A stretch of DNA of 30,633 nt from a virus (Duplodnaviria; Heunggongvirae; Uroviricota; Caudoviricetes): the IMG/VR virus record IMGVR_UViG_3300029888_000014, positions 1 to 30,633 of that record. One strand, written 5' to 3'. This document shows, in pieces, positions 27,001-30,000 of the stretch. Made by a program: the position numbers. How positions within the stretch are numbered: the stretch's first letter is position 1; each line of letters starts with the position of its first letter.

Positions 27001-30000
27001 GCGAGCCAGGGCTTCCGGATGGCTGTCGTCGTACAGTTCAGGAAACGTCATACCCAACTCAAAATAAGCCTGGGTTATTCCAGCTGCCGGAACTTTTTCG
27101 CCATCAGGACGCGCCCAGGCATTCATCGCCATGCGGATGTGTTCATGCTTGATTTTCATGAATCCCCCCTTGGTTAGAAGGCGGATTATGATCAGAACCG
27201 GGAATGACAACCGTCGGTATGTGTAACTCATATTTGAGCGCCCCGGCAGTGACTGCCTGAATTAGCAACGCCCATTTCCACGGAACCTCTTCCCCCCACA
27301 TGCTGACTGTGGTTTTTGACGTTCCTAGAGCTGCGGCTGTTTTAACAACTCCGCCAAAATAGCCTAATACTTCTGATTTTTTCATGAGTCGCTCCATAAA
27401 ACTGAACGCCAAAAGTTTAATAATCAAAACCAAAGAAAGTCAAGAAACAAAACCATCTGTGTTTTAAAATCAAAACATGAGCAAGCAAACAATATCTGAA
27501 CGCATAACCCAACGTATGCATGCGCTAAACCTGAAAGGCAAAGACCTTGTCAATGCCACTGGCGCATCAAAAGGCTCCGTAAGTCAATGGATGAACGGTG
27601 GAGGAGCGCCGTCCTCGCGTTACATAAGTTCACTGGCAAAAATATTGAAAGTAAACGAAAATTGGCTTCTTAATGGAGGAGAGTTAAATACAGGTGATTC
27701 GCTTGATCTATCTTTACCGCCGATAAAAACGGTTCCGCTACTATCACTTCAGCAGGCAGCAAGCTGGAGTGATTATATGAAAAATTCCTCAATAACCTCT
27801 TGTGTGCAGCTTGTCGGAGAAATCCCGGCCAATACCTTTGCAGTTGTTCTAGAGAGTGACAGTATGTCAACATCTGGTGGGGGAGTTTCCATCCCAAATG
27901 GTTCAACAGTTTTTGTTGATCCCGATCGAACCGTACAACCAGGAAATATTGTCCTTGCCTTACCCAAAGGGACCACAACACCTGTCATTCGTAAACTGGA
28001 GATAGAAGGGCCGGATATTCTTTTAGTCCCCACGAATCCTCGCTACCCTTCAATTATGCTGGATGATCTATCTTGCATATTGGGCGTATGCTTTAAAATT
28101 CAACAAGATATTTAACCGACCTCATCTATTTGATTAACTGTATGCCATCGTGGTGATGGCTTAACAGCTGCCTGCTTAAAATGTTTTGATAAAAAAACAT
28201 TGACCTGAAAAGTTCATTTTTCTAAACTTCATTCATTCCCTCTCCCCACCCCACAGAATGCAGGGCAATACTTCGAGTTACCAGGCAGTGGTCAGGGGTT
28301 AAGTAGCCAGCCTGAGGCGTAAGAACATGACGGCAGGGTTCAACTTTAACTATGCAGCAGGTTTTTGTTCCGCTCCCCCGGCGTTAAGGGGAAATGAGGT
28401 CAGCATGGATACTATCGAGCTTGGCAACAACGAATCTCTGGTATGTGGAGTATTCCCCAACCTGGACGGCACGTTTACCTCGATGACGTATACCAGAAGC
28501 AAAACGTTTAAAACGGAAGCTGGCGCGCGTCGCTGGTTAACCAGAAACACTGACTGATGAGGTTGACGATGGAATTTAAAGATTTACCAGTACCATTCCA
28601 GGAAATGGCATCGAATGTGGTTCGCTCTCAACTGGCGACTCTTGACCTGAGTACCGTAGAAAAAGAAACCATCGATACTATATCCGGTAACGTGCGTCGT
28701 ACCTTTATCGGGCTGTACGAAGAAAAGTTGCCATTCGGCGGACAAAATTCGCCTGAAAACAAGAATCAAGCGAATGATGAGAAGCTGAAACACGTTATCG
28801 CCTTACTACTGGAAGATGCAAAACGTCTACAGCAACTGGAACCAAATGCAGGCACCGAAGCCCGCATCTGGATTGCCATAGAATCACTCAAATGTGAAAG
28901 CGATGATTATTTAAAAACCATAATTAAAACAACTCAGCTTTCTGAAGAGCTACCGAAGAAATTGCCATAATAATATGTTTTCTTATAGAGGGGTTAGAAA
29001 TATGGGCCAGCATTATAGCAGGCCCATATAACAGAAAGTATTTTAAATGTTACGCCGTATCTTGTGATTGTTTTTTAATATATTCATACAAGCGCACAAG
29101 TTGTTTCAACTCTTCAAAGCACATAGCGGAATTTTCAATTTTTCCAGCGTTGATTAGTGCCAGAAGAGCCTGATGTGCGCAAGCATATGGATCAGTTACA
29201 GGGCTAATAATATCAACTTGCATATTATCCTCCATAGAGGTTCTGGGTTAATGATGGAGACCAACACGCTGTCACGTGTGGTCGTGCGCCGGACACGGAT
29301 AAGAATCCGGCAACACCAGTTTACCACTGGTTAATTTTCCCTGAAAAGTCAGGGCATAACACGAAAGCGCACGGCGAAGTTCGTCTCTCTGTATATGTCG
29401 TCGTTAAATTTAATTCGATCGTGCGCTTCCGGTTGTGGCAATCCGCGAAATGGCGCGGCGGTAAGTATGGCGGGGTTATTCCTTCCCCCGTTGAGGACAC
29501 CGGGTTGTCAGGTTGACCATACGCCTGAGTGACAACACCGCCACAACAACCTCTGTTATCACTTTTCTGGTGATTCGGCGGAAATGGATATCCGCCCTTT
29601 TTAAAGTGAATTTTGTGATGCGGTGAATGCGGCTATGCGCACGCGGAACAGTTAAAGCAGTAAGGCGGTCTTTTACTGGCGTAACGAGTATCAACTAACC
29701 CGGCGTTAATTGTTAACTGGTTAACGTCACCTGGAGGCACCAGGCACTGCATCACAAAATTCATTGTTGAGGACGCGATAATGGAAACGTTATTACCAAA
29801 CGTTAATACGTCTGACGGGTGCTTTAATATTGGTGTTCTGCTCAGTAACAGGGATTTCACCGAGGATGCAATCAATATGAGAAAATATGAACCCTACCTG
29901 CTGAATGACAATTCCATACTCTCCAGAATTGCCCTTCTTAAACTCGGTATTTTCGGAGAGTGGCGATGAACACATTATTCGTACTCATTCTGACTGTACA

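Follow-up and report, generated by a model that had tools for sequence, protein, structure and literature searches.

What does the early operon of a lambdoid prophage keep in about 550 bp that hold no convincing reading frame and are crowded with nested inverted repeats? The locus in question is positions 29236-29780 of the window, the 30,633-nucleotide stretch of IMG/VR virus record IMGVR_UViG_3300029888_000014 (Caudoviricetes), which is an enterohaemorrhagic Escherichia coli (EHEC)-type lambdoid prophage. An earlier note treated this stretch as an unexplained element; it is instead homologous to a known one, the untranslated region of the dicBF operon of the Qin prophage in E. coli K-12. We conclude with good confidence that this prophage has a Qin-like dicBF operon of the pL type and that the stretch is its untranslated dicF cassette. 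The element is not new but a homologue of the described dicF-containing untranslated region of a cell-division-inhibitor operon. DicF is among the first bacterial antisense regulators described, and its locus is a textbook one. What the present copy adds to the known dicF cassette is an unannotated deletion allele of dicF and an STnc100-related leader domain in front of dicB.

We base the identification on conserved gene order, collinearity, the DicF seed and terminator, the positions of the large helices, selection at the RNA level and the lack of a conserved open reading frame (ORF). Two loci with an annotated DicF align collinearly with the stretch, namely the ydfC-dicB untranslated region of K-12 Qin and a locus of phage Tritos. 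Identity to K-12 is ~83% over ~92% of the stretch. Clear homology to K-12 and Tritos starts near 29283, and 29236-29282 is junction sequence that is not common to K-12 Qin. Of 5426 complete E. coli genomes searched by megablast, 4720 contain part of the stretch, usually with several copies per genome, and dicB was annotated adjacent to it among the matches listed that reach the gene.

The surrounding genes have the order expected of such an operon. ORF calling and Pfam place on the + strand, in succession, a cI-like repressor gene of the LexA/S24 type (27477-28115), a DUF1391 (ydfA-like) ORF, a 137-aa ORF (orf137), the stretch, DicB and a DUF1482 (ydfD-like) ORF, while the late and pR-side genes lie on the - strand. 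The earlier placement of the stretch in an early-left (pL-type) operon, 3' of the cI-like repressor, is therefore correct. The dicB coding sequence (29781-29969, + strand, 62 aa) is supported by Pfam (DicB, E 5.1e-34) and by RefSeq annotation at near-identical loci, and is preceded by a ribosome-binding site, GAGGA, at 29769-29773 (+ strand). A candidate promoter of the pL/dicBp type, TTGACC-17-TAAACT (28200-28228, + strand; found by consensus scan only), sits between the repressor gene and the ydfA-like gene. Its position is analogous to that of K-12 dicBp (bioRxiv 10.1101/2023.04.14.536235), and we presume that it is the origin of the transcript that traverses the stretch. A consensus scan of 28229-29800 gave no internal + strand promoter for dicF or dicB, which matches the conclusion for K-12, where no internal promoter was found (bioRxiv 10.1101/2023.04.14.536235; PMC5069750).

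In K-12, the untranslated segment holds dicF, and DicF is excised from the polycistronic dicBp transcript (bioRxiv 10.1101/2023.04.14.536235; PMC5069750). RNase III generates the 5' end of a 190-nt species (bioRxiv 10.1101/2023.04.14.536235; PMC5069750) and RNase E that of the 53-nt small RNA (sRNA; bioRxiv 10.1101/2023.04.14.536235). The 3' end of DicF has two origins: Rho-independent termination yields the 53-nt form, and RNase III cleavage of the full-length mRNA yields the 72-nt form (bioRxiv 10.1101/2023.04.14.536235; PMC5069750). Alignment to K-12 dicF reveals a short allele in the window, UUUCUGGUGAUUCGGCGGAAAUGGAUAUCCGCCCUUUUU (29564-29602, + strand). It begins with the seed UUUCUGGUGA (29564-29573), 10 nt identical to K-12, followed by a terminator hairpin, GGCGGA-loop-UCCGCC (29577-29596; -10.7 kcal/mol), and a run of five U (U5, 29598-29602), all on the + strand; the core comprises the 34 nt from 29564 to 29597, with the U-run extending to 29602. 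Where K-12 reads UUUCUGGUGACGUUUGGCGGUAUCAGUUUUACUCCGUGACUGCUCUGCCGCCC, the window reads UUUCUGGUGAUUCGGCGGAAAUGGAUAUCCGCCC, a deletion of 2 + 16 nt, 18 nt altogether, and the seed is followed by UUC in place of the CGUUU of K-12. The deleted block, which covers the loop and a segment of the 3' arm, contains ACUCC, the anti-Shine-Dalgarno sequence for ftsZ, together with CUGCUCUG. The deletion leaves a compact 6-bp GC-rich hairpin with a U5 tail, which is called by the terminator scan. A small RNA and a terminator had been proposed among the possible contents of this region, and both are present as a DicF allele with its intrinsic terminator at 29577-29602.

The missing block bears on function. 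In K-12 DicF, the 3' region pairs with the ftsZ ribosome-binding site, whereas the 5' end serves xylR (PMC5069750). The window allele lacks the 3' complementarity to the ftsZ ribosome-binding site, the division-inhibitor part of the molecule. Compared with shuffled sequences, the predicted duplex with the ftsZ translation-initiation region reaches -33.8 kcal/mol for K-12 DicF (z -1.9) versus -12.7 kcal/mol for the window allele (z +1.6). Because the loop and 3' arm with ACUCC are deleted, we predict from sequence and energy calculations that the short allele has lost or weakened ftsZ repression and retains the targets of the 5' seed.

The allele is common. The 81 nt around it were matched with at least 80% query coverage in 478 genomes, including O157:H7 strains at 100% identity; about 37 of the 478 carry other alleles that aligned with gaps, which puts the short allele in roughly 8-9% of complete E. 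coli genomes. Three classes of DicF allele occur among viral contigs.

The rest of the cassette is highly structured. All the inverted repeats listed previously are real, lying at the coordinates first given or within 1 nt of them, as judged by direct reading and a repeat finder. GGTTGTGGC at 29431-29439 and GCCACAACAACC at 29540-29551 pair exactly over 8 bp (29432-29439/29540-29547), GTTGTCA (29504-29510) is matched by TGACAAC (29530-29536), and the TTAAC palindrome GTTAATTGTTAACTGGTTAAC occupies 29705-29725, 1 nt off the earlier 29706-29726. The repeat finder added two larger pairs, 29607-29625/29745-29763 (19 nt, 95%) and 29362-29373/29420-29431 (12 nt, 92%). The + strand RNA of 29283-29780 folds well beyond dinucleotide shuffles, at -182.4 kcal/mol compared with -153.5 +/- 6.6 kcal/mol in 100 of them (z -4.37; 0 shuffles as good). 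The - strand RNA is also structured (z -5.74), as expected because inverted repeats fold on either strand. The suspicion that the region is more than a simple terminator is borne out by two structured domains besides the sRNA and its terminator, which we call domains E and F.

Upstream of domain E, the minimum free energy and centroid folds place three leader hairpins on the + strand, CCGGA...UCCGG (29288-29311), the window-specific ACCAGU...ACUGGU (29315-29331) and CCCUGA-AAAG-UCAGGG (29339-29354), a section (29288-29354) that is partially conserved with K-12. They are followed by helix D (29362-29373/29420-29431, + strand), a 12-nt inverted repeat found in both folds. Measuring the length of the K-12 190-nt species upstream from where dicF ends places its 5' terminus at approximately 29426-29431, in the 3' arm of helix D. 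Helix D, only 12-16 bp long, is probably the upstream RNase III site, where the 5' end of the long DicF precursor is made.

Domain E (29432-29551, + strand) has a closing stem, 29432-29439/29540-29547, that encloses three hairpins: E1 (29443-29447/29454-29458), E2 (29459-29462/29499-29502, with an inner stem at 29472-29475/29486-29489) and E3 (29504-29513 with 29523-29525 and 29530-29536). It holds two of the repeat pairs seen earlier, GGTTGTGGC/GCCACAAC and GTTGTCA/TGACAAC. Blast and alignment show domain E to be conserved in Qin, e14-like and Stx2c prophages, in phage pPE4 and in the leader of the P1/P7 ban operon. Its sequence conservation is very high and compensatory changes are few: P1-type phages have C-G in place of U-A in E3, and the outer stem of E2 shows one change. 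Covariation therefore supports the structure of domain E only modestly. In each of its settings outside the window, domain E has an intrinsic terminator downstream at a similar distance, and the sequence of that terminator is different or unrelated. In the window, an AU-rich linker, CUCUGUUAUCACU (29552-29563, + strand), connects it to the seed; in the alignment this linker corresponds to the K-12 sequence directly before annotated dicF, and it presumably contains the RNase E cleavage site that sets the 5' end of DicF.

Domain E occurs in several other arrangements. The e14-like (L005) and Stx2c (L130) prophages have, at 1489-1700, domain E followed by a DicF-type terminator with the seed missing; in L005 the LexA-type repressor gene ymfK lies upstream of domain E, and L130 is unannotated. 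Phage vB_Apl-pPE4 (L133, 1180-1660) presents a DicA-type repressor, a pL-type promoter, domain E, two tandem seed-terminator cassettes, domain F and Kil. The tandem cassettes carry a different seed, CAUGUUGAUUACCUUUU, and a terminator, an arrangement that suggests a scaffold with exchangeable seed. In phage P1 (L129, 1501-1654), domain E and a terminator lie ~45 nt after the C1-controlled promoter Pban, and the 'dicF-like region' of the P1 record (L129 1553-1654) overlaps only the 3' part of domain E.

Domain F (29605-29765, + strand) is a four-way junction that ends 3 nt before the dicB ribosome-binding site. It is closed by the 21-bp helix P1 (29605-29625/29745-29765) and contains P2 (29629-29633/29639-29644), the base of P3 (29645-29647/29699-29701), which carries a variable insert, P4 (29702-29711/29719-29728), which is the TTAAC palindrome, and P5, CCUGG-AGGCA-CCAGG (29730-29734/29740-29744), all on the + strand. 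The 3' end of the K-12 72-nt species (PMC5069750) maps approximately to 29616, in the 5' arm of P1. RNase III signals are recognised by ~20 bp of near-continuous double-stranded RNA, and P1 offers 21 bp; P1 is probably the downstream RNase III site.

Covariation strongly supports domain F. Twelve diverse aligned copies of the class that precedes small ORFs gave a consensus of 44 pairs, in which 96.2% of cells were paired (slid controls, 33-42%) and 17 of the 44 pairs showed double changes, compared with 7.5 +/- 1.9 in shuffles (0/500 as good). In P1, 95% of cells were paired and 10 of 21 pairs covaried. The RNA strand is the + strand because the frequent G-U pairs would be A-C on the other one. 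The Rfam scan suggested earlier gave a match to STnc100 at 29595-29813 (30.6 bits, E 1.4e-4), below the gathering threshold of 47 bits, and left DicF unmatched; the homologous spacers in K-12, strain 2013C-4465 (L007) and Rac score 32-35 bits with STnc100.

A shared hairpin motif, TCACCNGGAGGCACCNGGCAC, is found in at least 120 IMG/VR loci, across which the unpaired nucleotides GGUGAAU, CUNNGCG and the loop AGGCA are invariant. The copies fall into two classes, CCUGG and CCGGG. A 51-sequence alignment of both classes retains P1, P2 and P5 in common with 9 covarying pairs, and at each of four P1 pairs 14-19 sequences have double changes. We built a covariance model, R1, from these 51 sequences; window sequences score 85-87 bits with it, a value that is uninformative by construction because they are part of the seed. 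R1 also finds a copy in phage P1 (L129 2839-2965, 69.8 bits) in the ban operon, immediately upstream of tciA, which is annotated as a possible inhibitor of cell division.

Each of the 30 distinct CCUGG copies has, within the next 33-45 nt, a Shine-Dalgarno (SD) sequence and the ATG of a small ORF (DicB, KilR or two unknowns), and a terminator follows 0 of them; upstream, 20 of the 21 distinct sequences close with a T-run no more than 8 nt from P1. P1 measures ~21-23 bp in the dicB copies. In the kilR and other small-ORF leaders a bulge and mismatches interrupt the contiguous count at 10 bp, although the aligned helix continues. As a further arrangement, Rac (L006, 1456-1699) has a DicF-like terminator hairpin without the UUUCUGGUGA seed and then domain F just before the kilR start codon. 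In the CCGGG class, P1 is ~6-10 bp, with three exceptions that have a 22-23-bp P1 of unrelated sequence and precede other small ORFs. An intrinsic terminator follows 40 of 78 CCGGG copies, and 14 of 76 start 4-8 nt after a promoter of the TTGACN-18-TAAATT type (1.2 expected). In the loci checked, holin genes follow this class, and in one case a Q antiterminator gene precedes it. Since these copies stand between a Q gene or promoter and holin genes, they resemble late-operon leader RNAs. Such relatives occur among IMG/VR contigs L016, L028, L044, L050, L015, L079 and L102, and they form tandem promoter-domain-terminator units, with three copies in L016 and two each in L028 and L044.

Taken with the K-12 work, these features suggest how the cassette may operate. 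Once the cI-like repressor is lifted, a polycistronic transcript would run from the candidate promoter at 28200-28228 through the ydfA-like gene, orf137 and the stretch. RNase III would cleave helix D at the foot of domain E, yielding a precursor of ~172 nt (190 nt in K-12), and RNase E would cleave the AU-rich linker to give a short sRNA that ends at the intrinsic terminator (29577-29602). Both RNase steps are seen in K-12 and carried over to this prophage by homology. Transcripts that read through would fold into domain F, and RNase III would cut the 21-bp P1. This cut, seen in K-12 as the 72-nt DicF 3' end (PMC5069750), would part DicF from the dicB message and presumably give dicB a short leader in which the SD is free. 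The two largest helices match the two K-12 RNase III events because the K-12 RNA lengths, transferred via the alignment, land there. A simple promoter scan of K-12 missed dicBp, and the published '813/814' numbering is untied to coordinates; the mapping rests on RNA lengths because dicBp was not located by that scan.

Several observations count against this account. RNA length is the sole basis on which the RNase III positions were carried over from K-12, at an uncertainty of roughly +/-5-20 nt, and the RNA species proposed for this prophage are likewise those of K-12, assigned by homology. The Rfam DicF model has no match at E <= 10 over 28900-30000 (gathering threshold 48 bits); in controls it scored 76.7 bits with K-12 DicF, 43.5 bits with a 56-nt allele and 39.1 bits with the Rac kilR-upstream element. 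On its own, the 5' seed can still pair with the ftsZ SD through 8 base pairs, of which 3 are G-U, so that some residual ftsZ regulation is possible. Upstream, ydfB/ydfC of K-12 are replaced by orf137, a hairpin at 28998-29030 and an antisense 61-aa ORF, an altered context that might lower transcription into the cassette. Finally, the DicF terminator precedes dicB, and the mechanism leaves the passage of polymerase through it unexplained.

Could the cassette instead be a decaying remnant, in which the 18-nt deletion inactivated DicF and the leftover structure is inherited but unused? The deletion does take the experimentally important ftsZ-pairing part (PMC5069750), the allele goes unrecognised by Rfam, and an antisense ORF has been inserted upstream. 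However, the terminator is clean, a 6-bp GC-rich hairpin with U5 and not a broken one, several hundred complete genomes, O157:H7 included, carry the identical allele, and domains E, F and dicB are intact, with the window domain F fitting the covariation-supported consensus. We consider decay unlikely.

Regulation in cis offers another explanation, in which domain E, domain F or both would be put-like antiterminator or factor-loading sites, or ligand- or protein-sensing leaders that gate the toxic small genes. Domain E is followed by a terminator at a short fixed distance in five other contexts, across Qin-type alleles, e14-like and Stx2c prophages, pPE4 and P1/P7, comes shortly after a repressor-controlled promoter in P1 and pPE4, and is conserved in primary sequence far beyond the needs of a hairpin. 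Domain F has its invariant unpaired nucleotides across at least 120 loci, and in the CCGGG class it comes after a promoter (14/76 against 1.2 expected) and before a terminator and holin genes, once after a Q gene. Both placements of domain F are sites of controlled termination, and neither an N-like gene nor a nut site was seen. Yet HK022 putL and putR show no sequence similarity, the window domain F stands after and not before the DicF terminator, and the dicB SD is unsequestered in any predicted alternative pairing. In K-12, the terminated 53-nt and the 190-nt species accumulate, whereas longer transcripts go undetected (bioRxiv 10.1101/2023.04.14.536235), and the long helices are already explained by RNase III cleavage. 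Regulation in cis beyond the marking of processing sites is improbable on this balance.

A broader view is that domains E and F are parts of an old modular RNA system common to lambdoid and P1-type phages, and not passive processing sites; we regard it as doubtful. In its favour are the invariant unpaired nucleotides, the constant company of domain E and a terminator, and the occurrence of domain F in late-operon leaders as well as ahead of toxic early genes. Domain F would then be the 5' leader of late (lysis) operons between promoter and terminator, of which STnc100 and PasD would be the terminated form. It could bind a host or phage factor or a small ligand and so control read-through, stability or translation of toxic genes, and domain E with its adjacent terminator could be either an sRNA cassette with exchangeable seeds or a put-like antiterminator.

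Candidate relatives among known regulatory RNAs were also compared. The nun-cI-cro region of HK022, including putL and putR, was read directly and is unlike domain E or F; a 9-mer, GCGCGGCGG, shared with this region was judged to be a chance match. The P4 immunity (CI RNA) region, also read directly, has no similarity. A P1-like pairing seen by eye in the lambda 6S / pR'-tR' leader was unsupported by model R1, which at E <= 10 found nothing in the lambda Q-S region, HK022 or P4.

One of the possibilities raised in the earlier note, a nut site of the lambda type with boxA and boxB on which an N-like antiterminator would act, is largely refuted. The position in an early-left operon would suit it, and P5 (29730-29744) has boxB-like geometry with its 5-bp stem and 5-nt loop. 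However, boxA-like (CGCUCUUA-like) matches are absent from 28632-29800, and so from the stretch, and occur in the window as a whole at chance level (19 versus 17 +/- 4). The loop of P5, AGGCA, does not fit GNRNA, and P5 is the sole 5-bp/5-nt hairpin; it is embedded in the four-way junction, which is found also in sRNA-like late-operon units. ORF calling and Pfam showed no N-like ORF between the repressor gene and the stretch.

The earlier verdict of no convincing ORF holds, in that only short ORFs (up to 80 aa) are present, with no significant Pfam match and no conservation, and the comparative search for a conserved small ORF found none among 34 distinct homologues. For ORFs of at least 30 aa, 0-3 of 33-34 distinct homologues preserve the start codon and the frame without internal stops, with the exception of a 31-aa ORF retained in 16 of 34. 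A 23-aa ORF at 29627-29698 is open in 30 of 34 homologues. Its AUG lies inside the conserved GGUGAAUGCGG junction and is missing in STnc100-class relatives, and its open frame is probably a by-product of the conserved RNA motif. That the stretch encodes one or more small proteins is hardly credible, although ORFs of 23-80 aa occur on both strands and the 23-aa frame is widely open, since Pfam matches are lacking, the ORFs of at least 30 aa are broken in most homologues, a 1-nt indel relative to K-12 falls within a 45-aa ORF, and the 23-aa ORF begins in the RNA junction without a properly spaced SD and encodes a peptide whose conservation ends at about residue 10.

Other features of the window lie nearby or share RNA families with the cassette. 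The antisense 61-aa ORF (- strand, 29050-29235; a RefSeq hypothetical) adjoins the junction at 29236-29282 and is followed by the GC-rich hairpin at 28998-29030, both between orf137 and the dicF cassette. A weak RyhB-like match in 28998-29235 is merely this terminator, and the upstream flank with its antisense arrangement is common to only 48 of 5426 complete E. coli genomes. In the late region, Rfam identifies a full STnc100 copy (18786-18994, - strand, 131.7 bits), AsxR directly beside it on the opposite strand (18730-18782) tRNA-Met/Arg/Arg (19071-19320, - strand) and, at 23462-23636 on the - strand, an antitoxin RNA resembling sok. Pfam assigns the ORF that directly precedes the tRNAs (19347-20060, - strand) to the AraC-type HTH proteins, so that it is not a Q antiterminator.

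A DicF allele carried by roughly 8-9% of complete E. coli genomes, O157:H7 strains among them, is thus invisible to Rfam-based annotation. Because the allele is missed by Rfam and is without the ftsZ segment, counts of 'dicF copies' in pathogens may mix functionally different sRNAs. The cassette is modular, as the same scaffold occurs in other phages with other seeds or none, and the dicF-dicB spacer, the kilR leader, the P1 tciA leader and STnc100/PasD are joined into one RNA domain family. The locus also raises the question of how the DicF terminator is passed in early operons that lack N.

Among known systems, the HK022 put RNAs and lambda nut sites share with the stretch a place in a repressor-controlled early operon, near or upstream of terminators, but the window has no sequence or motif similarity to them. 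RNase III intercistronic signals, such as the sites in phage T7 early mRNA and in the lambda N leader, are helices of ~20 bp that separate functional units. Like them, helices D and P1 are long helices in a polycistronic phage early transcript, and by this analogy they most likely act as RNase III intercistronic signals; unlike them, P1 is the closing helix of a conserved four-way junction whose loop nucleotides are invariant, features that simple cleavage would not need.

The closest counterparts of domain F are the 5' domains of STnc100 (Rfam RF02076) and the PasD prophage sRNAs. They share P1 with GGUG/CACC, the junction AAU, the P2 loop CUNNGCG, a P4 loop with CUGG and P5 as CCNGG-AGGCA-CCNGG, and, judged from these sequence motifs, domain F is a distant relative of the STnc100 5' domain. 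It differs from STnc100 in its P1 (21 bp versus ~8), the sequence of its P2 stem and a U-A pair in P5 where STnc100 has G-C. STnc100 is a stand-alone unit with a single-stranded region and a terminator, which 0 of 30 CCUGG-class copies are, whereas domain F lacks both a seed and a terminator within its own unit and begins right after a terminator. The Rac kilR leader shows the same succession of a DicF-like terminator and domain F directly before the gene, but has no UUUCUGGUGA seed and another upstream domain. The P1/P7 ban operon has domain E with a terminator after Pban and domain F before tciA; it too is without the UUUCUGGUGA seed, and in P1 ~1.2 kb of sequence that includes tRNA genes and an antisense cassette separates the two domains.

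The nearest relative of the whole cassette is Qin dicBF of K-12 (Rfam RF00039 for the sRNA). The window differs from it in an sRNA core of 34 nt instead of 53 nt that has no Rfam match, an S24/LexA-type cI in place of DicA, and orf137 with the antisense 61-aa ORF in place of ydfB/ydfC. The two share the succession of repressor gene, ydfA-like gene, untranslated region, dicB and ydfD-like gene, as well as the 10-nt 5' seed of DicF, the position of its intrinsic terminator and the two long helices at the K-12 RNase III cuts.

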